From: a virus
Taxonomy: Duplodnaviria > Caudoviricetes
DNA: 54,131 nucleotides
Reading direction: 5' to 3' (one strand)
Virus record (IMG/VR): IMGVR_UViG_3300022929_000037
Coordinates: 1-54,131 of that record
The position numbers and the translations under genes were made by a program. The first letter of the stretch is position 1, and the number at the start of each line of letters is the position of its first letter. The notes under the pieces were generated by a model, which was given only the letters and a program-made list of their open reading frames with translations, was not told where the DNA came from and made no database searches. Of this stretch, positions 6,562-31,929 are shown piece after piece.

Positions 6562-7200
6562 TTACTCAAAGAACAACACGTCTGACGGGTTCTTCCCCTC
6601 TTCGCTAGGCACATACTCTAGAGTATCTTCTACATCAAACTGAAAAAACATAGGCATTGTATATCTGTGACCCGACTTTAGCTCTAGAATTTGGTGACGG
6701 TATCTGCTTGGAAACAAAAGCATGTCTCCAGCTTTAGGCTTTATCGTTAAATCAAACTCTGGAAATGATATCTCTCCACCCGAATAGTCGTCAGTAAGGT
6801 AGGATAGTGATGTGATATTATACTGATAGAATCTTTCTACAATGGCTGGTCCCCCAGAGGGAGTCTCTGAGTCGCTATGTACAGGCATTGAGCTACCAGT
6901 AAGCATGCCCCATTTTGTTAGGTGAGCTGGATTACGTGTGTATCCTTTAAACGGAATACCATACTTTTCTCCATAGTGCATAAGCACTTCAGCCATGGCG
7001 GCATTTTCGTAAAAAATTAGCAGAGCTCGTATTTCATGGTCAACATCCTCTTGTTTAAAGGTGCCATCATCATCAAGACTATCTAAATAATTAACAAATG
7101 TCTCTATATCTTTAGGGTGGACAAAGTTTTTTAGATGTGTAATCCCATCTTTAGAGTAGCCAATTTTATTATACTGCTCCATATAATTTTCATAGCTCAT
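6562..7200 (-). CDS. 2OG-Fe(II) oxygenase, prolyl-4-hydroxylase-like
   Basis: HSD, YLTDDYSGGEISF, KPKAGDMLLFPS, H, G-x-RY. Confidence 0.85.
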   Translation of the reverse strand: MSYENYMEQYNKIGYSKDGITHLKNFVHPKDIETFVNYLDSLDDDGTFKQEDVDHEIRALLIFYENAAMAEVLMHYGEKYGIPFKGYTRNPAHLTKWGMLTGSSMPVHSDSETPSGGPAIVERFYQYNITSLSYLTDDYSGGEISFPEFDLTIKPKAGDMLLFPSRYRHQILELKSGHRYTMPMFFQFDVEDTLEYVPSEEGKNPSDVLFFE

Positions 7201-7212
7201 AAGTCTATTATA

Positions 7213-7902
7213 TCATTCCTCATAGAGCATGTTGATGGTTTCGGGGAATGCTTCTTTAGTTAGTTTAAGAACTGCCTTTGCATACTCTTGGATTTCCCAC
7301 TGTGCGTCATGCTCAATACGCTGGTCAAGGAACGTAAGGATGCCCTGGAGCGAGACAGTCCACCTCCAACGCACATACATTCCATAAGCAGGCAGGAATA
7401 GCCTAGCGATCTCTGGTGCAATGCCGTCGTCCATTGCTTCGTGGTAGACCTGTGTGCCAGCCACGACAAGCTCACAAAGCTGCTCAAAATACTTCTGGCC
7501 AATCTCTATATCTACTGGCTCTCCAGAACCCTGCTTGCTGTTTTCTGGCTTGCTACGCCATTCATGTGGTAGTGGTATATAAAACTTCTCATCTTCAGTA
7601 ATGTAACGCCTAGAAGATTCATTCCAGCCATTCTGCTCATCTACATGCGTAGAGGCTACTGCATACTTCCACCATTGCCTTGCAACAAATAGTGGAGCAT
7701 AGACCTCGAAGGTAGCTGCTGCATGTCTGAAAGGACTTGTGTGCTGTTCTCTCAGCAAAAACTTTAATAGTTTTGCATCTCTTTCCTCAAACTCGCTTTT
7801 CTCCTTATCGTAAGACACCCTGGCAGCATTTACTACCGCCAGATCGTCTCCTAGCGTGTCTACGAGGCGTACGTAGCCCTCATCTAGAACATTCTCTTTC
7901 AA
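7213..7902 (-). CDS. thyX: FAD-dependent thymidylate synthase
   Basis: VNAARVSY, HTSPF, PLFVARQW, NESSRRY, ARLFLP, AQWEIQEYA. Confidence 0.9.
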   Translation of the reverse strand: MKENVLDEGYVRLVDTLGDDLAVVNAARVSYDKEKSEFEERDAKLLKFLLREQHTSPFRHAAATFEVYAPLFVARQWWKYAVASTHVDEQNGWNESSRRYITEDEKFYIPLPHEWRSKPENSKQGSGEPVDIEIGQKYFEQLCELVVAGTQVYHEAMDDGIAPEIARLFLPAYGMYVRWRWTVSLQGILTFLDQRIEHDAQWEIQEYAKAVLKLTKEAFPETINMLYEE

Positions 7903-12576: not shown

Positions 12577-13284
12577 TTATAACATAGATTCTGGGTGTAT
12601 GACCAGGGTAAATGGATCTGGAAAATGCTTTGAATGCTTAGAGAAAAGCTCTGATGCCTTGCATCTATAGGTTCTGGCATTCAACTCTCCCATATTGTGC
12701 ATTATTGTAGACATTCTGTCAGGGCCAAAGGTATCAGATATGCTATCAAATAAGGGCTTAGATTTTTCTAAATTATCTACCACTATAAGCAGTATAGTCG
12801 GCATCTCTAGAGAAATATTTTTCAAAAGGGCCAGCCTATCTGAATAGTCTTCCCACCTAACCAAAATCCCACCAAATACAAATGCATTGCCATCTATCCC
12901 AGACAATATTGTTGCTGACATCACAGCCGAAATGTTTGGTGTTATGTCTACCTGTATATTTTTTTCTACTAACAAGGCTATAACCCCAGCATATGGATCT
13001 GTTATATTCGGAAAACCTTCATCACTTACGATTACTATATTTTGATTAATATTATTTAATATAATATCTAGTGCATCGTAATCATCCAAGAAATGGTCCT
13101 CGCCCACAGATTGAATTGTTGAAATAATTCTTTTACCTTCTATGTCTATCCCAAGCTTATCCATCACTTCTGTAAAACGATCATGTGTTTCACAAAATAC
13201 TATGTCGGCATTTGCAAATAGCTCAACTTGTTCTTGAGAAAAGGCTTTAGGATATAGGCTAAATGATGATACGGTTATGCTCAT
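12577..13284 (-). CDS. RsmI-like SAM methyltransferase, paralog 2
   Basis: VSDEGFPNITDP; shares WEDYS, TYRCxASEL, HFPxPFTLV with 10338..11033. Confidence 0.7.
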   Translation of the reverse strand: MSITVSSFSLYPKAFSQEQVELFANADIVFCETHDRFTEVMDKLGIDIEGKRIISTIQSVGEDHFLDDYDALDIILNNINQNIVIVSDEGFPNITDPYAGVIALLVEKNIQVDITPNISAVMSATILSGIDGNAFVFGGILVRWEDYSDRLALLKNISLEMPTILLIVVDNLEKSKPLFDSISDTFGPDRMSTIMHNMGELNARTYRCKASELFSKHSKHFPDPFTLVIHPESML

Positions 13285-14906
13285 AGCAAAATCACCCTTT
13301 TAATTTCTGGGCAATACAAATATTTAATTCCAGATTCTTTACAAGTTCTGATTGCATCGTCCATATTGCGAACAAGCGTGTCTCCTGCTAGATTAAAAGA
13401 TGTATTCAACAACATAGGAACTCCAGCAATAATTCCAAACTCTCTTATAAGGTGGTAGTAGTGAGCATTATCCTTGATAGATACTGTTTGAATTCGTGAT
13501 GTTCCATCATTATGCTGAAGTGCTGGAACTATATCTTTTTTATCTTTAAGAGTTTCTACGGCATACATCATATGTGGACTGTCGCTCAGGGTCGCTAGGT
13601 CAAACCACTCGCTTGCCTTATTAACCAATACACTTCCAGCAAATGGCCTAAAGAATTCTCTCTTTTTAATTTTGTTAACCTTGTCTCTACCATCTGGGTC
13701 TCTTGGGTCATAGAGTATTGACCTATTCCCCAGAGCCCTAGGTCCAGACTCTTCTTTGCCCTGGTAGAGTGCTACAATGTTTTGGTCTGCTAGTAGTTGA
13801 GCAACATCCTTGTAGGACACCTCCTTTGACTCTACACCAATTGGGATATCGTAGTTTGCGTGCTCCCCCAAGTAAAGTAAGTTAATTGGCTTTACAGATT
13901 TTTCAGTAAGCTTTGTGTATAGGTATTGTGCAGCACCTATAGAAGTTCCAGAGTCACTAGAGTTTGGCTCAACATAAAAGTTAATGTCTGGAAATTCTTT
14001 TAAATATTTATAATTATTTACACAATTTAGGAAGTATCCACCACTTAGACATATATTTGTGTTGCCCCAAAATGACAGTGCTTTACGAATAAGGCGAGCG
14101 GTAAACTCAAATGAGTCTGTTTGTGTCCTATAAGCAAGGTCCTCGTTAGATAGGTCTGAGTCTAGAATTGCTGGGTTTGCACCCTCTTCATCGAAAGCCC
14201 GTGGGTGTTCTGGGTTATCAGAGCCGTAGGCAGAGAGGCCCATGACCTTTCCTGCATTATGATAAGAGCCAAATATCTTAATACCTACAGCTGAGAATAG
14301 CTTTCCCAAGCTCATATTTCTGTCATATACAGTATAGTTGCAACCAATATCAGATAGGTCTTGGGAGCATTTCGAAAAATATGGCATGTGGCCTAGCTCC
14401 TCCTGGTATTCCTCATACTGATCTTTGTCAAACTGCTTGATAAGGTTCTTGTGAGTTGCAATAATGTTTGTTTGACGGGCAATATACATTGTTTCAGACT
14501 CTCTATATAAAGTTTCTTCGTCATAGAACGCCTGCCCAGCACCGTCAATAACCAGGACAGCTGCTTCGTCAAACTTGGAGTTATTAAATGCAACAGTTGC
14601 ATGGGCCAGATGGTGGTCTTTCATCCAATGTGCTTTTGGCATGCTGGGGCTTTCAAAATGTTTTTGTTTGCCACAAGCAAATAGCAATGTATTTAGCAGC
14701 ATCTCGGCATTGAGATCATATGGAAATGCCCCAACAAAAATTACATGGTTAGGCTCTAGTTCAATTCCTTTTGCAAAGCTATGCAAAACACCAGTAGTAT
14801 GTTTTTGATGAGTAACACGCTCCTCTTCTTGGTAAAAGATTATCTTACCATCCTCAATTACGCACACACTGCCGTCGTGCGATAGGTTGACACCCATTAT
14901 TTTCAT
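13281..14906 (-). CDS. carbamoyltransferase (NodU/CmcH family)
   Basis: SHDGS, EER, HHLAHA, GKVMGLSAYG, GPRALGNRS, KREFFRPFA, LNTSFN. Confidence 0.92.
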   Translation of the reverse strand: MKIMGVNLSHDGSVCVIEDGKIIFYQEEERVTHQKHTTGVLHSFAKGIELEPNHVIFVGAFPYDLNAEMLLNTLLFACGKQKHFESPSMPKAHWMKDHHLAHATVAFNNSKFDEAAVLVIDGAGQAFYDEETLYRESETMYIARQTNIIATHKNLIKQFDKDQYEEYQEELGHMPYFSKCSQDLSDIGCNYTVYDRNMSLGKLFSAVGIKIFGSYHNAGKVMGLSAYGSDNPEHPRAFDEEGANPAILDSDLSNEDLAYRTQTDSFEFTARLIRKALSFWGNTNICLSGGYFLNCVNNYKYLKEFPDINFYVEPNSSDSGTSIGAAQYLYTKLTEKSVKPINLLYLGEHANYDIPIGVESKEVSYKDVAQLLADQNIVALYQGKEESGPRALGNRSILYDPRDPDGRDKVNKIKKREFFRPFAGSVLVNKASEWFDLATLSDSPHMMYAVETLKDKKDIVPALQHNDGTSRIQTVSIKDNAHYYHLIREFGIIAGVPMLLNTSFNLAGDTLVRNMDDAIRTCKESGIKYLYCPEIKRVILL

Positions 14907-15484: not shown

Positions 15485-15528
15485 GAATTTAATTATACCA
15501 GAAACAAAATAGGGTATAATTGTTATAC

Positions 15529-15780
15529 ATGTCAATATTTGCAGAGTTTCAAGCATACAAAGAAAAGCTGGGGTGCCATGACTGCAAGGTTATGTATCCC
15601 CACTACATTTTAGAGTTTGACCACAGAGAGGGCAAGCTCAAAATTGATAACGTTAATCGTGTTTTGAAAAGGTATGGCAGAGATGCTGCATGGGAAGAAG
15701 CAAGGAAGTGTGACGTTGTGTGCTCAAACTGTCACAAGCAGCGAACATATGAAAGAGAGATAGCACGTGTTAATAGATGA
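15529..15780 (+). CDS. HNH endonuclease-like protein
   Basis: CHDC, LEFDH, KCDVVCSNCH. Confidence 0.75.
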   Translation: MSIFAEFQAYKEKLGCHDCKVMYPHYILEFDHREGKLKIDNVNRVLKRYGRDAAWEEARKCDVVCSNCHKQRTYEREIARVNR

Positions 15781-16336
15781 TAATTTTTTAAGTGAGCAGT
15801 CAATCCTGGATGTTTATAGCAGGGTTCTAGACAACGGCCATGACATACCCTGGACTCTAGCCTATAGCACTAACATGAAGTCAGACCCTGAAGGCTATGT
15901 TAAAGAGACTTCTGCAGTAAAGGAGTCTTACCAATTTGCGGCTGGGCTTATGCCTAATACCGTTGCGTATAATTATTTTTGGAAAGTGTTTCATGAGTTT
16001 GCCACAAAGCATAACATCTCATATACTAGGATACTAAGGGCTAAGCTTAACTGGCTTCCCAGATCAGCTGATGCTAGCCCAGAAGATTACCATACGCCAC
16101 ACGTTGACTCAGATGAAGAGCATAAAGTATTCCTTTATTACCTAAACAGCTCCGATGGCGATACCTTTTTCTTTAACGAAACATACCCCCTCGAAGAAGG
16201 AAGTGAGCTGACCCTAAACCAAAGGGTAAGTCCAAAGGCTGGCAGGGGCGTAGTTTTTGATGGAAACATCTATCATGCGTCCTCATCCCCGATTGATTCA
16301 AATCACAGGTGTATTTTAAATATAGACTTTATATAA
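15767..16336 (+). CDS. 2OG-Fe(II) oxygenase
   Basis: PHVD, LYYLNSSDGDT, FDGNIYHASSSP, R-x-ILN. Confidence 0.82.
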   Translation: MLIDDNFLSEQSILDVYSRVLDNGHDIPWTLAYSTNMKSDPEGYVKETSAVKESYQFAAGLMPNTVAYNYFWKVFHEFATKHNISYTRILRAKLNWLPRSADASPEDYHTPHVDSDEEHKVFLYYLNSSDGDTFFFNETYPLEEGSELTLNQRVSPKAGRGVVFDGNIYHASSSPIDSNHRCILNIDFI

Positions 16337-16339
16337 AAA

Positions 16340-16427
16340 TCCCCCACACAGGAACCTTGGCGTAGCCCAGTCAAATGGGTAACTAATCCATCCTAAGGTA
16401 GGCACCCCTTGCCCGTGTGTGGGGGAC
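16340..16427 (-). ncRNA. candidate structured small RNA
   Basis: Own TATAAT (16439-16434), perfect 11 bp closing stem, internal stems, U-tract at end; family not recognised. Confidence 0.55.
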
Positions 16428-16441
16428 TATTTAATTATACA

Positions 16442-16837
16442 CTACTTAATCTCAATTTGCTTTGGCTTCATGTCCTCTGGCATATTGTTGTGTAGATCAA
16501 TGTAAAGAATGCCGTCATATGCTGAGGCTTCTGTTACCTCAAAATATTCTGGCAGAGAGAACGAGCGAACAAACTTACGAGTAGCAATGCCCTTGTAAAT
16601 GTATTCGTCTTCGCTTCCTAGCTTCTCACCCTTTACGGTGAGGATACCACGCTCTACAGAAATATCTAGCTCACCACGGCCAAAGCCAGCAACAGCGAAC
16701 TCCATTACGAAGTGGTTGTCGTTTACCTTCTTGACGTTGTAAGGTGGGTAGTTTGTTTTCTGTAGTGGTGCATTAAACATTCTGTCAATTTCCTGATTGA
16801 ATGTTGCAAATGGATCCTTCATATATAGCGATACCAT
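16442..16837 (-). CDS. small heat shock protein (Hsp20/IbpA-like)
   Basis: YPPYN, AVAGF, YKGIATRKFVRSF, DGIL, KPKQIEI. Confidence 0.93.
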   Translation of the reverse strand: MVSLYMKDPFATFNQEIDRMFNAPLQKTNYPPYNVKKVNDNHFVMEFAVAGFGRGELDISVERGILTVKGEKLGSEDEYIYKGIATRKFVRSFSLPEYFEVTEASAYDGILYIDLHNNMPEDMKPKQIEIK

Positions 16838-18770: not shown

Positions 18771-19011
18771 CTTCCTTACCTCCTTCTCTCATTAACATTA
18801 CGATAGCCCCATTGTCCTCCAGGGCCTTCTTTACTTTGATCATATAGTTTACTGCAGCCACCTTGGACTCTACATCTGGCAATGACATAAATACTTTTTC
18901 ACTTGCCCTTACGACCAAAAAGTGTTCTTCGTCAATAATGTCTACGTAGAAGTTCTTAGGCATATGGTGCGACAAAGAGTGCACTGCAGATTTCATTTTA
19001 TCTGTGTACAT
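18763..19011 (-). CDS. hypothetical protein
   Basis: Operonic ORF overlapping neighbours. Confidence 0.65.
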   Translation of the reverse strand: MYTDKMKSAVHSLSHHMPKNFYVDIIDEEHFLVVRASEKVFMSLPDVESKVAAVNYMIKVKKALEDNGAIVMLMREGGKEDV

Positions 19012-19288
19012 TTTGTGTTAGCCCCTTCCAAGTGTCTGCCCAATGCTTCTTGGTACGATGTCTGTTAAACTCTCTAGACACTTTGCCATTTTCAATATAA
19101 ACTCCACCCCAGACTCCCCACTCTTTCTGAGACACCCCAACTGCAAAACACTGTCTGCGTACTGGGCAATCTGAACAGAGGCTGTCAATGGCTGGTCGTA
19201 GCTGTTCGTCTTCTTCATATTTATCAAAAAATAGATTAACATCATAGTCGAGACATGCAGCTGATTGCTTCCATGTTTCCTTGTTCAT
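18998..19288 (-). CDS. whiB: WhiB-family Fe-S transcription factor
   Basis: AAC...LFF...CSDCPVRRQC...GVWGG. Confidence 0.9.
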   Translation of the reverse strand: MNKETWKQSAACLDYDVNLFFDKYEEDEQLRPAIDSLCSDCPVRRQCFAVGVSQKEWGVWGGVYIENGKVSREFNRHRTKKHWADTWKGLTQNVHR

Positions 19289-22325: not shown

Positions 22326-22991
22326 CTATTCTGTGCCGTCAGACATGCGTGGATTGCTTAGGTGGTGATACCAGTGTGGCATTGCATACCTGGTTCCCTC
22401 AGTTACTGGCATAATCTCATGAACGTATAGGAAGTTAGAAGGAAAAAAGACTATGCTTCCAGCTTCTGGCTTAATCTTGGTATTTGATTGCCTAAACTCT
22501 ATCTCACCACCAACGTAGTTATCGTTTAGGTAGCTAACTGTTGAGATGAGCCTGCTGCTTATACCTAGATCTTGGTGTGCAGGAAGATGGCCCTTGTCGT
22601 ATGCCTCGTATCTAAGGATACCGTCCATAGGCTCCTCTGACTTTACTGCATTTGCTGCAAACGGATATAGCTGTGTTGAGTAGTGGTGAAAAGCTTTATC
22701 TAGTGAGCCATACAATGCATCTGCAATTTGCAAAAGTTCTTGACGATAGTAGTCATGCTCTTGAATCTGGTCATGCCTCCAAATAAAAAATTTGTAATTA
22801 AATGGCTTTTCCATGTGGCTATCGTGCCATGGCCTCCAGTCATTAACTGCTGTAAAATATCCCTCATGCTCATTTTGTTTAAACCGTTCAGCAAGCTTAT
22901 CTACCAAGTCTACTATATACTCAGTATCTGGAATGATATTTTTGTAATATACTAGTCCAAGATCCTTTACTTCAAACTCTATTTGATCCAT
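22326..22991 (-). CDS. 2OG-Fe(II) oxygenase, prolyl-4-hydroxylase-like
   Basis: HQD, YLNDNYVGGEIEF, FFPSN, HEI, GTRY. Confidence 0.87.
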   Translation of the reverse strand: MDQIEFEVKDLGLVYYKNIIPDTEYIVDLVDKLAERFKQNEHEGYFTAVNDWRPWHDSHMEKPFNYKFFIWRHDQIQEHDYYRQELLQIADALYGSLDKAFHHYSTQLYPFAANAVKSEEPMDGILRYEAYDKGHLPAHQDLGISSRLISTVSYLNDNYVGGEIEFRQSNTKIKPEAGSIVFFPSNFLYVHEIMPVTEGTRYAMPHWYHHLSNPRMSDGTE

Positions 22992-23970
22992 TCTTCTCCT
23001 GTTTTGCTAGATATTCTATTATATCAGAAAAGGGCTGATAATATTTTCTAGCACTGACTATTGACATATAGTGATCGTGCATTCCTATTGCCTTATAAAA
23101 GTCTTCTGGTGATAATTCTGAGTCAATCTTATAGGGTCCAAGGTTATATAAAAAGAAACGTATAGTCTCATAAAGAACTTCTGGACTGTCTTCTACTGCA
23201 GCAAATTGTTTATTTTTTTCAAACTTAAATGGATTCCAGTTATGATATGCGTATACCCTCTTATATGATCTGTAGGCCTCCCAGCCCCTCATAAATATTA
23301 AATAAGACTGTAGTGGCTCGTCGTTAAACATTTTTACATCTTCTATAAAGAATAAGTTATGCTCAAAATATTCCTTGGGAGCAAAGAACAGGTCCATCGA
23401 TGTATAGTATGTTTTGACAAAGTCTTGGTGTGGAGATTTTACTAAGGGAGAACTTACATTAGTTAAAAAGTCGAGCTCTCCGTTTGGCTCTATAGAGTAA
23501 TCAAACTGCGTTATGTGGTGCAGTGCCACCTCTCCATCGCTTCTACAATTGCATGGCTCTGTTACTGGAGGCTCGCTGTTTGACATTTGACAAGAGATTA
23601 CGACCTTATCGTTACCAGTTTTTAGCCTTAGCTCATTATAGTCGTCAAGAATAAAAACATCCCATCCGCTAGTAAATGTCATGTGAGCATCTATAGATAA
23701 CACATAGTCATAATTTGTTGACAGCGATGCTAGGTCATTTCTTACCTGAATTAGTCCTGGCCTTTCTGGGCCATAATCAATTATAGTAAGATTGTTGTAT
23801 ATAGATAAGTCTAGGTTGATACGCTGATGCTGAAGCCCTACAGCAAAATATATCCTTTCTGGATACGTTGCTTTGTCTATTGCTCCCTGTATTGTTCCAA
23901 TTAGTGATGGATCTTCGTATGATGGTATGATGACCAATATTGTTTTATTATTTGATAACCTTTGTTCCAT
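22972..23970 (-). CDS. GT60-like glycosyltransferase, paralog 2
   Basis: TILVIIPSYEDPSL, PERIYFAV, SIDAHMTFTSGWD. Confidence 0.72.
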   Translation of the reverse strand: MEQRLSNNKTILVIIPSYEDPSLIGTIQGAIDKATYPERIYFAVGLQHQRINLDLSIYNNLTIIDYGPERPGLIQVRNDLASLSTNYDYVLSIDAHMTFTSGWDVFILDDYNELRLKTGNDKVVISCQMSNSEPPVTEPCNCRSDGEVALHHITQFDYSIEPNGELDFLTNVSSPLVKSPHQDFVKTYYTSMDLFFAPKEYFEHNLFFIEDVKMFNDEPLQSYLIFMRGWEAYRSYKRVYAYHNWNPFKFEKNKQFAAVEDSPEVLYETIRFFLYNLGPYKIDSELSPEDFYKAIGMHDHYMSIVSARKYYQPFSDIIEYLAKQEKNGSNRV

Positions 23971-25387
23971 ATTCTTGTTCCCATTTTATAACGTCCGCCT
24001 CATCATTAAGAAGTGGCTGGCCCTTAATATTAAGGCTAGTGTTTAGTAGTACTGGAACCCCAGTCTCTTCATAAAAACGTCTTAGGAGGGCATACAGGCC
24101 TGGATGCTGACGCTTATTTACGGTCTGAACCCTAGAAGTTCCATCCGCATGAACCACAGAAGGTATTTCACTTGGCCTCTTGCATACAAAAGTGTATTGC
24201 ATATATGGTGATGCTGCCTTCATATCAAACCAGTCATTAGCAAATTCCTCTAGAACCACTGGGGCAAATGGCCTAAACAGCTCTCTCTTCTTAATCTTAT
24301 TGACCTTATCCTTAATGTTTGGATCTCGTGGGTCTGCCAGGATACTTCTGTTGCCTAGTGCTCTTGGACCATATTCTGCCCTACCGTATACAACTGGTGC
24401 AACTCCATCAGATAGGATTGCTGCTAGTGCCTGCTCTACTGGATACTTCCTCTTAGGCATATCATATCCCAAGTATGGTCCCCTCCAGGTAAGGTGCTTT
24501 CCATAGGCTGCAGCTGCTGCTCCCAAAGAGCTTCCTGCATCTCCAGGGTTTGGCATAATCCAGACATCAGAGAACATGTCCCATAGCTTCGTATTAGCAG
24601 AAGCGTTTAGTGCACAGCCACCCATAAACACTAGGTTATGCTTGCCAGTCTTATTAACTGCAAACTCCATAAACTCCATAAGCCTTTGCTCATAGACCCT
24701 TTGAACTGCTGCTGCAATATCAAACTTATTTCTGTCATTGACCTCTTCATTCCAATCAAGAATGCCTTTGTGAAAGTTATATCTTTGACCCTTAATGCTG
24801 TCAAAGTATGAGTTTACCTTGCTGTAGTACTTGTTTGCTTTGCCATATGCTGCCATGCCCATCATGATATACTCTTCTTCGTTTGGCTTGAGCCCAAGCA
24901 GCTGTGTGAATGCAGAGTAGAAAAGACCAAAGCTAAATGGATAATTCTTTTTGTATACCTGCTTAATTCTATCGCCTTCACCAACCCAAATGGTAGAGGT
25001 ATTCCATTCTCCTATGGCATCCAATACCACAATTGTAGCATCCTGGAATCTGCTTGTGTAATAGCCTGCAGCTGCATGTGAGTAGTGGTGCTTAAATGTT
25101 TTTACTGGGAGATCTTTGAGCTCAGGATGATTGATATACCTTGGGCTGTCTCCCCCAAAGCCCCCACTAATTGCAATTCTACTTTTCTTTAATAGTGGCT
25201 TTTCATAATAGGCAATCATGTCTGGCTTGCCATATCTCAATGCATCTTCAATTAGTTTATCATTAGTAAACCAATCATTCTTTTCTTTACTATACCGCTC
25301 AGCGTGCCCAGCAAAAAGAATATTGCCGTTCTCAATTAGCGACACTGAAGCATCATGTGTTGTCTCATTAATTCCAAGAATTTTCAT
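23948..25387 (-). CDS. carbamoyltransferase (NodU/CmcH family), paralog 2
   Basis: HDAS, HHYSHA, EYIMMGMAAYG, GPRALGNRS, RPFAP, LNTSLN. Confidence 0.92.
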   Translation of the reverse strand: MKILGINETTHDASVSLIENGNILFAGHAERYSKEKNDWFTNDKLIEDALRYGKPDMIAYYEKPLLKKSRIAISGGFGGDSPRYINHPELKDLPVKTFKHHYSHAAAGYYTSRFQDATIVVLDAIGEWNTSTIWVGEGDRIKQVYKKNYPFSFGLFYSAFTQLLGLKPNEEEYIMMGMAAYGKANKYYSKVNSYFDSIKGQRYNFHKGILDWNEEVNDRNKFDIAAAVQRVYEQRLMEFMEFAVNKTGKHNLVFMGGCALNASANTKLWDMFSDVWIMPNPGDAGSSLGAAAAAYGKHLTWRGPYLGYDMPKRKYPVEQALAAILSDGVAPVVYGRAEYGPRALGNRSILADPRDPNIKDKVNKIKKRELFRPFAPVVLEEFANDWFDMKAASPYMQYTFVCKRPSEIPSVVHADGTSRVQTVNKRQHPGLYALLRRFYEETGVPVLLNTSLNIKGQPLLNDEADVIKWEQEYGTKVIK

Positions 25388-27133: not shown

Positions 27134-28097
27134 GCAAATCTCTCCAAATATTATATGCAAAGTTATAATAAAAGTCGTGTTCTGCAATTCCTGGGTGAAC
27201 AATATCGAATGCCCTCAACATAAATTTTGCAAATTTATTATTCTTGTTAATCTTTATGAAGGTCATCATGTGGGCCTGGAGTTCTTTTTCAGCAAATTGA
27301 TATAGAGTATTATTCGTCTGCTGTCTTGGGTCAAGCCAGGGGCTTTGGTAAAACACATCATTAAAATTAGGATTTTGATCAAGGTACGCACCGCCCTTGA
27401 AAGAGTGTATGTCCCAAGAAAACATTATAAGTTTGATATTGTTTGTCTCTGCATATTGAATAAGAGCATTGTGCATTGGAAGAATTACAGAGTGCAGACT
27501 CTCTATTGGAATGCCTGCGTCAATTGACCTCTCTAGGTCTGGGAAATTAATAAAGATATATTCTGGATTTCCGTATAGCTCAATATACTTAAAGACTTGA
27601 TAATAAATATCTAAATGGTTAAATCCTGGTCCAGCAACATTGTAATATCCGCTGGTAGGAACTTGCTTACTAATAGATTTATATACCATTTTAGACCAGG
27701 TTAAGTCAATGGGTAGCCCGTCACCAAAAGTTATGGAGCATCCAGCAAACAAAATATGAAGTTTGTCGTGTGAGTCGGAGAACTCGTCGCACCTTAGCCC
27801 GTCTGAGTTTAAGTGGTAAAAATTATCTATTGTCTCGCCAAAGGTCTCAAGATTCTTTTTAGTAAAGTAAAGATTGAATGGAGACATTAAGGCTGGCATT
27901 AGCTTTGAGTATTTCTGAGACTTACTCTCATGGACTTTGCTAAGCGGAAAATTTGTTTCTATGTAGTCAAAAAGCTCTTCCGCTTTATCAAACCATTCCG
28001 TGTAGTCTTCTCCATATTGCTGGTAAAACTCCAGAGTTGACTGGGAAGGATTGAAACCACTTAAATCTTTATACGCCTTGCTCATGTTTTTGAGCAT
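27120..28097 (-). CDS. SGNH/GDSL-like protein, paralog 3
   Basis: FAGCSITFG, YGNPE, DIVHPG. Confidence 0.65.
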   Translation of the reverse strand: MLKNMSKAYKDLSGFNPSQSTLEFYQQYGEDYTEWFDKAEELFDYIETNFPLSKVHESKSQKYSKLMPALMSPFNLYFTKKNLETFGETIDNFYHLNSDGLRCDEFSDSHDKLHILFAGCSITFGDGLPIDLTWSKMVYKSISKQVPTSGYYNVAGPGFNHLDIYYQVFKYIELYGNPEYIFINFPDLERSIDAGIPIESLHSVILPMHNALIQYAETNNIKLIMFSWDIHSFKGGAYLDQNPNFNDVFYQSPWLDPRQQTNNTLYQFAEKELQAHMMTFIKINKNNKFAKFMLRAFDIVHPGIAEHDFYYNFAYNIWRDLHGPI

Positions 28098-28707
28098 GTG
28101 CTACCGCATATGGGTGACGCATGCACTCCCAATCTAACTGATTGCTTAGCTGTTTCCCACCAGTAAAGTCTGGATCTGCATGGTTTGGGATGCTGGTGTG
28201 CATATACAAACAAGTATGCCTTCTTCCAGACGTTACTTCCGTAATTCCATGGATGTGTTCAGAGCCAGCACTTGGGAAGAATACTGCAGAATATTTGCGT
28301 GGCTTATACTCAAAACCCTGATTCGGGAAATAAATAACTCCACCCTCATACTCGCTTGGGTCATTAAGATAGATTATTGTGCTCCACTCAATAAAAGGTT
28401 CTGGATCTTGTGCATCCATGTGTAGTCCACCAGAGCTTCCAGCTGTCCACATAGAGCCAAATGCCTTAAAGACATATATTGGATTAACAAAACCGTTAAG
28501 CTCTTTATGAACCTCGTTTGACTTATCTCCATACTTTACAAGCAAGCTCATAATTCTATCATTATATGGAAATGCTGTTCCTCCAAACCTTTCCTCATAA
28601 TATTCTGGATACGGGTTTGTCTCAGATGGTGACATCTGCTCCTCGATCATTACAGCAGCATCTTCTGGTGTAATAAAGTTATCAATTATATGTATACGAT
28701 GCGTCAT
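28069..28707 (-). CDS. 2OG-Fe(II) oxygenase, prolyl-4-hydroxylase-like
   Basis: HMD, IYLND...YEGGVIYF, FFPS, HGITEVTSGRR. Confidence 0.87.
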   Translation of the reverse strand: MTHRIHIIDNFITPEDAAVMIEEQMSPSETNPYPEYYEERFGGTAFPYNDRIMSLLVKYGDKSNEVHKELNGFVNPIYVFKAFGSMWTAGSSGGLHMDAQDPEPFIEWSTIIYLNDPSEYEGGVIYFPNQGFEYKPRKYSAVFFPSAGSEHIHGITEVTSGRRHTCLYMHTSIPNHADPDFTGGKQLSNQLDWECMRHPYAVAHAQKHEQGV

Positions 28708-31699: not shown

Positions 31700-31701
31700 A
31701 G

Positions 31702-31775
31702 AGCCTCCTGTCAGATTCGAACTGACGACCTACGCATTACAAGTGCGTTGCTCTGGCCAACTGAGCTAAGGAGGC
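31702..31775 (-). tRNA. tRNA-Thr(UGU)
   Basis: GCCTCCT acceptor, TAGCTCAG D-arm, ACGCA-CTTGTAA-TGCGT anticodon arm, TTCGAAT T-loop; no CCA. Confidence 0.93.
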
Positions 31776-31779
31776 AGTG

Positions 31780-31853
31780 CGACCTGGATGGGACTTGAAC
31801 CCACGACCCCCACCGTGACAGGGTGGTGCTCTAACCAACTGAGCTACCAGGCC
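31780..31853 (-). tRNA. tRNA-Asp(GUC)
   Basis: CCACC-CTGTCAC-GGTGG anticodon arm, TTCAAGT T-loop; no CCA. Confidence 0.93.
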
Positions 31854-31857
31854 TAAG

Positions 31858-31929
31858 CTCCCCTCCGTGGATTCGAACCACGAACCTTAGAGTTAACAGC
31901 TCTCTGCTCTGCCATTGAGCTAGAGGGGA
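31858..31929 (-). tRNA. tRNA-Asn(GUU)
   Basis: TCCCCTC acceptor, AGAG-CTGTTAA-CTCT anticodon arm, TTCGAAT T-loop; no CCA. Confidence 0.92.

Follow-up and report, generated by a model that had tools for sequence, protein, structure and literature searches.

A candidate structured small RNA gene with an invariant hairpin module in uncultivated, WhiB-encoding phages

What is encoded in the short space between hsp20, a small heat-shock protein gene, and the 2OG-Fe(II) oxygenase-like gene that faces it in the genome of a tailed phage? The stretch analyzed, referred to here as the window, is a 54,131-nucleotide (nt) IMG/VR virus record, IMGVR_UViG_3300022929_000037, which is rated 47% complete. On its minus strand an 88-nt element at 16427-16340 is preceded by the hexamer TATAAT at 16439-16434. 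An initial annotation, made from the letters alone, had proposed an unrecognised structured RNA at this place; it had not recorded that the element lies between convergent genes, hsp20 on the minus strand and the oxygenase gene on the plus strand. A convergent pair makes a bidirectional terminator the obvious null hypothesis. The evidence assembled below places the element instead in a previously undescribed, single-copy phage RNA family. On balance, we lean toward reading it as a gene whose product is a structured small RNA (sRNA) of ~85-90 nt, stable and transcribed on its own, that acts in trans through a nearly invariant module.

The closing helix, the interior module and their homologues

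The TATAAT box and the perfect 11 bp closing stem of the initial annotation were both seen on the minus strand. The closing helix (P1) joins a 5' arm, GUCCCCCACACA (16427-16416), to a 3' arm, UGUGUGGGGGA (16350-16340), across an interior of ~65 nt. Its 11 perfect base pairs extend to 13 with G16427-U16339 and A16428-U16338; in this longer form (A)GUCCCCCACACA at 16428-16416 pairs with UGUGUGGGGGAU(U) at 16350-16338 of the minus strand. The fold has a predicted energy of -44.8 kcal/mol, as against -31.0 +/- 3.7 for shuffled sequences (z = -3.74), and 1/200 shuffles was as stable. The 11-mer arm is found in the window only as the two P1 arms, with 0.49 occurrences expected. The parts of the element, in the order of the minus strand, are these:

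16434..16439 (-): -10 hexamer TATAAT, 3 nt past the hsp20 stop codon
16427..16428 (-): putative transcription start at A16428 or G16427, 6-7 nt 3' of the -10 box, placed by spacing
16416..16428 (-): 5' strand of P1, AGUCCCCCACACA, from the minimum free energy (MFE) fold and the family alignment
16400..16414 (-): small hairpin of subtype A, GGGCA-AGGGG-UGCCU, with arms at 16414-16410 and 16404-16400
16393..16397 (-): CUUAG, near-invariant, 5' of the module hairpin; G16393 is common to the P3 stem
16388..16393 (-): 5' strand of the stem P3, GGAUGG; at least five contiguous pairs flank the loop in 55/64 distinct sequences
16379..16387 (-): 9-nt loop AUUAGUUAC, nearly invariant, from the invariant alignment columns
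16373..16378 (-): 3' strand of P3, CCAUUU, from the family alignments
16351..16372 (-): variable 3' domain, GACUGGGCUACGCCAAGGUUCC, which includes AAGGU and is conserved within subtype A only
16338..16350 (-): 3' strand of P1, UGUGUGGGGGAUU, from the MFE fold and the family alignments
16335..16339 (-): U-run UUUUU after P1, of the kind found as an intrinsic-terminator tail

No known gene class accounts for the element. No open reading frame (ORF) of at least 30 aa lies inside 16340-16439, and ARAGORN, applied to the whole window, placed neither a transfer RNA (tRNA) nor a transfer-messenger RNA there, in agreement with the initial annotation, which had seen no ORF and no tRNA signature. The RNA also remained unrecognised in the Rfam comparison that it had recommended. 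A scan of the window with the 4227 models of Rfam 15, ribozymes and riboswitches included, returned only three tRNAs at 31.7-31.9 kb, and a permissive scan of 16200-16600 (E<=10) gave chance matches only (NEAT1_2, and mir-767 with 18 bits where the gathering score is 90).

Homologues of the element were found in ~80 IMG/VR contigs, representing 60 or more distinct sequences. Among ten IMG/VR relatives of hsp20, a clearly homologous element lies right 3' of the stop codon in eight and is not found in two. A scan with a conserved-core pattern yielded 66 loci, and a second pattern, confined to the 3' domain and blind to the loop, yielded 32 loci, 16 of them new. A covariance model (R1), built from an alignment of 60 distinct sequences (alignment A1), gave exactly one strong match (E<=1.7e-7) in 80/86 sources and no match in the two hsp20 loci that had looked empty. 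The element is single-copy in the window record. When R1 was applied to five larger records, 3/3 complete genomes (105-112 kb) proved to have one copy each, as did a record rated 58% complete; R1 had no match in the larger record that holds one of the ~120-nt relatives described below.

Covariation among these homologues, a check that the initial annotation had proposed, came out clearly for P1. The helix is variable in sequence yet paired: 95.5% of the alignment cells are paired, compensatory double changes occur in 9/9 scored pairs, and the covariation score was reached by 0/500 column shuffles. Sliding the 3' partner by 1-3 columns left pairing at only 34-62%. A model-based alignment of 69 distinct rows, which leans toward the covariance model from which it was made, has P1 paired in 96.2% of cells, again with compensatory changes in 9/9 pairs.

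The interior contains 13 invariant columns in alignment A1. They make up CUUAG, the stem (A)GGAUG(G)/(C)YAUUU and the 9-nt loop AUUAGUUAC, and the stem around the loop (P3) has 5-7 bp. In 14 sequences one G of the 5' strand is missing, and these also lack one C/U on the 3' strand of P3. Since most copies were gathered with a loop-containing pattern, the loop-blind sample is the fair test of invariance. In that sample the loop is AUUAGUUAC in 26/31 and CUUAGUUAC in 5/31, and CUUAG is kept, sometimes with one extra base. Among the eight hsp20-derived copies, the loop is AUUAGUUAC in seven and AGUAGUUAC in one. The initial annotation had judged the element too elaborate for a simple terminator and had named conservation of the outer stem alone in homologues as the sign of one. 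The opposite pattern was seen, in that the outer stem varies and covaries while the interior hairpin is nearly invariant. The AUGG/CCAU pairing that it had drawn around the loop is present in the window.

Two other readings of the module were considered and rejected by eye: a CsrA-type GGA site, because variants insert a base into AGGA, and a mini-ORF, AUG GAU UAG, because the one-G deletion breaks the frame. One of the new loci, L086:12593-12669 (-), is a deletion derivative in which the end of hsp20 joins the second half of the hairpin loop; the promoter, the 5' strand of P1 and CUUAG are lost and the 3' half is kept.

The same module is found on a second scaffold. In four IMG/VR records (L036, L046, L099 and L065/L100) an RNA of ~120 nt directly follows a tRNA, the two sharing one TATAAT. 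This RNA has a 12-bp covarying closing helix and a 3' half unrelated to that of the window RNA, and it holds CUUAG-GAUGG-AUUAGUUAC-C at the same place as the window RNA does. The relatives lie at L036:3040-3240 (-) and L046:585-730 (-), and in L099 and L065/L100; the preceding tRNA has the anticodon loop CUUAUAU, and Rfam scans of these larger relatives returned tRNAs only. Re-use of the module on another scaffold suggests that the module is the working part.

Outside the module the interior falls into two subtypes, and the window belongs to subtype A (15 distinct sequences). The hairpin GGGCA/UGCCU and the stem ACCUU/AAGGU of the initial annotation are both present in the window and are restricted to its subtype. 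The small hairpin can be folded in 14/15 distinct subtype-A sequences, with 3' strands that differ (e.g., GGACA/UGUUC), and its segment is missing from subtype B; ACCUU/AAGGU (16399-16395 with 16358-16354) can form in subtype A. Subtype B carries GACCGUGGCC..CGUGCYUGAAU in place of the subtype-A 3' domain. A candidate long-range helix in subtype B, P2 (UACG/CGUG), is paired in 66% of cells with some compensatory changes, and a whole subgroup lacks it. As for the pseudoknot once suggested between UAGUUA in the loop and UGACUG downstream, the complementarity exists in the window and is specific to it: across the family, loop-to-downstream pairing is no better than that of shuffled controls (5.13 vs 5.02 bp).

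Transcription signals and genomic setting

A -10 box that matches TATAAT in at least 5/6 positions lies upstream in 67/67 distinct copies, and 47 of these matches are exact; TG occupies the extended -10 position in 28 of the 67. In 58/67 distinct copies 6-8 nt separate the box from P1, counted to the first G:C pair, and the box is kept also where the upstream gene is on the opposite strand. Such fixed spacing would place the transcription start at the first bases of P1. At the level of sequence, the promoter of its own that the initial annotation had claimed is thus supported. Downstream, at least four T occur within the 8 nt after P1 in 57/67 distinct members; with a U-run in most copies, P1 probably also acts as a transcription terminator.

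Parts of the window are represented in 24 RNA runs, and the four best were examined as assembled Logan contigs, in which depth is flat, strand is not recorded, DNA may have been carried over, and uncovered parts count as no evidence. In 4/4 of these metatranscriptome runs, near-identical contigs cover the element contiguously with hsp20. In 2/4 runs a higher-depth contig (16.9 and 22.9, as against 3.3 and 6.4 for the neighbours) starts within P1, 5-6 nt short of its 3' end, at 16346/16345. The third run has a contig break at 16412, and in the fourth a single contig spans the whole region. These contig ends are a weak hint that transcripts end at P1.

The genes that frame the element in the window, and the gene that bears on the host, are as follows:

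16442..16837 (-): hsp20 (small heat-shock protein), upstream; Pfam HSP20 2.4e-18, PHROG 432
15767..16336 (+): 2OG-Fe(II) oxygenase-like gene, convergent, with its stop 4 nt from the helix base
18998..19288 (-): WhiB-like gene, Pfam Whib 4.1e-13, a marker of an actinobacterial host

The hsp20 stop codon TAG is at 16444-16442 of the minus strand, and the TAA stop of the oxygenase gene, at 16334-16336, overlaps and abuts the complement of the U-run. The initial annotation had suggested looking for homologues near hsp20; the association proved frequent and not obligatory, hsp20 being the upstream neighbour in 32/68 distinct proteins. The other upstream neighbours among these 68, the neighbouring ORFs having been picked by a simple longest-ORF rule, are:

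glycosyltransferases, 9
ferritin/Dps-like, 4
thioredoxin, 3
methyltransferases, 2
M23 peptidases, 2
PstS-like, 1
pyrimidine-dimer glycosylase-like, 1
amidase, 1
without a Pfam family, 13

The upstream ORF is on the opposite strand in 10/71 contexts that have one. The downstream gene is convergent in 12/66 contexts that have one, the window included; most downstream genes are co-directional, and the next gene, when not convergent, usually has its own TATAAT. Neighbours and strands as varied as these indicate that the element travels as a unit of its own and is neither a 5' leader nor always a 3' untranslated region (UTR).

The family appears to be confined to phages. Searches with blastn or megablast against 50,697 phage records returned nothing for the element, for the 3 kb around it or for a subtype-B copy at E<=10. 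In 185,579 bacterial and archaeal species, each represented by one genome, the motif was matched twice, both times on phage-like contigs of 39-41% GC in metagenome-assembled genomes; both contigs share the promoter layout and are therefore probably binned phage DNA. In the literature, word searches found nothing on this RNA, and the 12-nt motif, in RNA or DNA letters, was printed in no paper found, supplements and recent large catalogues of non-coding RNAs lying outside that search.

WhiB is present in 5/5 other carriers tested and, among 14 control genomes, in Corynebacterium only; the DnaE-like polymerase of the window is 54-57% identical to those of Streptomyces phages. WhiB and a polymerase of this kind mark the carriers as actinophages, an uncultivated, WhiB-encoding lineage of ~105-112 kb. 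In all five records in which both were located (G001, G002, G004, G005 and the window), the RNA is 1.3-6 kb from the WhiB gene; the RNA and WhiB share the same accessory or early region.

Several other features of the window were recorded along the way. Just 5' of the convergent oxygenase gene, an 86-aa ORF at 15520-15780 (+) matches only the C-terminal part of HNH endonuclease PHROGs and is probably a remnant. The oxygenase gene is one of four 2OG-Fe(II) oxygenase-like genes (6562-7200, 22326-22991 and 28069-28707 on the minus strand, and 15767-16336 on the plus strand). There are also two Nol-like carbamoyltransferase genes (13281-14906 and 23948-25387, minus strand), as well as glycosyltransferases, a nucleotide-sugar epimerase and a UDP-glucose dehydrogenase-like gene. 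The carbamoyltransferase, oxygenase, glycosyltransferase and sugar genes together are a large sugar or modification module. The tRNA cluster at 31701-31929 (-) comprises Thr-UGU, Asp-GUC and Asn-GUU, with 3 nt between each. The match of a 73-aa ORF at 7213-7434 (-) to ThyX is confined to the C-terminal third (Thy1 profile positions 129-191), and the gene may be split or truncated.

Possible function and alternative explanations

If the element is the gene for a trans-acting sRNA, as we favor, it could work as follows. The host RNA polymerase would start at the conserved -10 box, and the first bases transcribed would be the 5' strand of P1; the last would be its 3' strand, followed by the U-run. 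With its strands at the beginning and the end of the transcript, P1 would seal both RNA ends. It would also serve as an intrinsic terminator, both for the RNA itself and for read-through from upstream (from hsp20 in the window). P1 and the variable scaffold would hold out the module, that is, CUUAG, the 5-7 bp stem and AUUAGUUAC. The module would then, most likely, act as a decoy or adaptor that binds and titrates its partner, a protein or ribonucleoprotein, in preference to pairing with a messenger RNA (mRNA). A protein or ribonucleoprotein is preferred because: i) the window shows no enrichment of sites with which the loop could pair; ii) recognition would be of a structured hairpin, and this hairpin is conserved on two scaffolds; and iii) a helix closes off both ends of the RNA, a trait shared with other decoy or tethering RNAs.

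Several points weigh against this reading. The partner is putative, and a host mRNA may be the target, the antisense count covering the window only. A clear U-run is lacking in 10/67 members (three T or fewer in 8 nt). The RNA contigs cannot show a separate small RNA or its 5' and 3' ends, and the libraries may contain DNA. Interior pairing outside P1 and P3 differs between the subtypes. For most members the search pattern itself included the loop, the invariance of which therefore rests mainly on the 31 loop-independent and eight hsp20-derived copies. Furthermore, a conserved GUGGC follows ~20 nt after the loop in most subtype-B members and could pair with GUUAC of the loop (78.6% of cells paired). 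Both partners are conserved, which puts this pairing beyond the reach of covariation, and the loop may be buried in a pseudoknot instead of being displayed.

Pairing with mRNA is the substance of one alternative: a base-pairing regulatory sRNA, 3'-UTR-type or independent, whose seed would be the invariant loop and CUUAG and which would alter the translation or stability of a host or phage mRNA through a kissing or antisense duplex. An unchanging single-stranded loop of 9 nt would fit a conserved target. A promoter of its own and a terminator shared with the upstream gene are typical of 3'-UTR-type sRNAs, and the element has both. However, the window contains 16 loop-complementary sites where 17.7 are expected, the only exact match being the opposite strand of the element itself; an RNA with another scaffold keeps the module as well; and Actinobacteria are not known to have Hfq. 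We consider base pairing rather unlikely, though worth keeping in mind. The null hypothesis fares worse. If the element were only an elaborate intrinsic terminator, bidirectional in the window and with an interior that is filler, then the GC-rich stem of 11-13 bp with U5 between convergent genes, the T-rich tract (at least four in 8 nt) after the stem in 57/67 members, the end of RNA-library contigs at the stem in 2/4 runs and the terminator-like appearance of the plus strand as well would all be explained. What it leaves unexplained is the pattern of conservation: an invariant module persists in the 65-nt interior and it is the stem sequence that changes, the opposite of the pattern expected if the interior were filler. 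A -10 box stands at a fixed distance in 67/67 copies, and the element occurs once per genome and not at many gene ends. The downstream genes are mostly co-directional, which makes bidirectionality specific to the window. The terminator-only explanation is thus largely refuted by conservation, and we regard it as very improbable.

Restriction to phages, a single copy per genome and a place in a variable accessory region beside WhiB, hsp20, Dps and thioredoxin genes are also what might be expected of an anti-defense RNA, a sponge that mimics a ligand of host immunity or of a toxin (a CRISPR repeat, or the RNA substrate or antitoxin of a toxin). RNA anti-CRISPRs, the subject of a 2026 preprint, are a documented precedent, and an invariant recognition module on a stable scaffold would suit such a role. 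Yet there is no repeat array and no match to an Rfam CRISPR direct repeat or any other Rfam family, and no conserved defense-related gene appears among the 68 distinct upstream neighbours; we consider this explanation unlikely. Finally, a riboswitch-like ligand sensor or a self-cleaving RNA might be suspected from the compact fold of several helices, the invariant nucleotides and the possible pseudoknot between the loop and GUGGC. None of the 4227 Rfam models matched, and nothing points to the ribozyme that the initial annotation had listed as an option. A riboswitch is further disfavored by the position of the element, which is not a leader (the next gene is either convergent or usually has its own TATAAT), and by P1 with its U-run, which would terminate transcription whatever the ligand. 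We give both a sensor and a ribozyme very little credence.

One specific, speculative candidate for the partner of the favored trans-acting sRNA comes from a likeness to ribosomal RNA (rRNA). The loop with its closing pairs, GGAUUAGUUACCC, agrees with positions 785-797 of E. coli 16S rRNA, GGAUUAGAUACCC, in 12/13 bases and in the same hairpin register. Positions 785-797 form the apical hairpin of helix 24, the 790 loop, which is generally described as universally conserved. Each of the two RNAs has a 9-nt loop above two closing G-C pairs. Further down the stem, two pairs differ in sequence and are still formed: C-G and A-U in the rRNA, A-U and U-A in the phage RNA. The position equivalent to 792 is always U in the phage RNA and A in the rRNA, which weakens the case for mimicry. 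The phage product would be a free small RNA, whereas the rRNA hairpin is part of the ribosome, and the flanks of the phage hairpin (CUUAG and the 3' domain) have no likeness to rRNA above chance. When the 16S locus was shuffled, a 13-mer match with at most one mismatch was obtained in 0/200 trials; the comparison is post hoc, and the match is suggestive but statistically fragile. Local alignment of whole RNAs to the E. coli rrn operon did not score above shuffles (124, 204 and 141 of 300 scored as high), and the subtype-B 3' domain scored 18 against rRNA, compared with a shuffle mean of 17.9, with neither helix 45 nor helix 23 picked out. With alignments beyond the hairpin at chance level, mimicry of a larger part of the 30S platform was no longer considered.

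The 790 loop is a docking site for several factors. The IF3 C-domain contacts it, a change at 791 cuts IF3 affinity ~ten-fold and IF3C at this loop blocks bridge B2b (PMC3130014), while loop 1 of KsgA (bioRxiv 10.1101/2021.09.15.460497) and HPF (PMC7913689) also contact it. The RNA could accordingly be imagined as a free 790-loop mimic, made in bulk, that titrates a host factor docking there, the IF3 C-domain being the prime candidate and KsgA or a hibernation factor the others; we hold this to be doubtful. If it were true, titration would make initiation less accurate or the ribosomal subunits less well kept apart, to the benefit of phage messages, several of which look leaderless. It would then be the first rRNA-mimicking decoy RNA from a virus of bacteria, and a new viral way to tamper with translation initiation. 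IF3 disfavours leaderless mRNAs; leaderless-looking ORFs, with a -10 box 4-9 nt before the ATG, number 6/75 in the window and ORFs with a Shine-Dalgarno-like motif 32/75, a count that is weak support at best for the IF3 idea.

At the window gene starts 4027, 4819, 7200, 15529 and 46234, TATAAT stands 6-8 nt ahead of the ATG and a Shine-Dalgarno sequence is lacking, so that these genes look leaderless; many related loci are alike. A recurrent leaderless-looking gene, starting with the DNA sequence ATGCCATATCATG, lies just 3' of the RNA in many loci.

Whatever its partner, an sRNA of this kind would be of interest because few structured phage RNAs besides tRNAs are understood, and RNA anti-CRISPRs proved to be tools of host takeover or counter-defense. 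The family occurs in abundant, uncultivated aquatic actinophages and is absent from Rfam and from the 50,697 phage records searched.

Comparison with known systems

Small stable RNAs co-transcribed with a phage tRNA cluster are known from T4 as species 1 and 2 RNAs. The ~120-nt relatives, which directly follow a tRNA under one promoter, resemble these in arrangement; unlike them, the window RNA has its own promoter and no adjacent tRNA. The PeSL cassettes of T4-type phages, which are simple repeats present many times per genome, combine an early-type -10 promoter with a stem-loop terminator beside accessory genes, an arrangement similar to that seen here, where a further TATAAT is often present after the U-run. 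The phage RNA differs from them in being single-copy and in having a conserved structured interior.

Like bacterial Y RNAs (YrlA) and other protein-tethering or decoy RNAs such as 6S RNA, the phage RNA joins its two ends in a long terminal helix from which a conserved internal module is displayed, and protein binding is presumed. The phage RNA is unlike Y RNA, YrlA and 6S in having no Rfam match and no tRNA-like domain; TROVE/Ro60 was found in 0/68 upstream neighbours, the scan having covered the upstream side. With 3'-UTR-type and independent sRNAs it has in common a promoter at the end of the upstream gene, a shared terminator and a short non-coding product. Unlike the 3'-UTR type, it is tied to no single upstream gene, its ends are sealed in a long helix, and to our knowledge there is no Hfq-type context.

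The closest resemblance in outward form is to intrinsic terminators: a GC-rich helix and a U-run stand at the end of hsp20, between convergent genes in the window. The "loop" of such a terminator would, however, be ~65 nt long and contain an invariant module, it would have its own promoter at a fixed distance, and it would occur once per genome. The stem of the phage RNA is the variable, covarying part and not the conserved part. Judged from these sequence features, the base of the element behaves like an intrinsic terminator, and the element as a whole like an sRNA gene in its own right.

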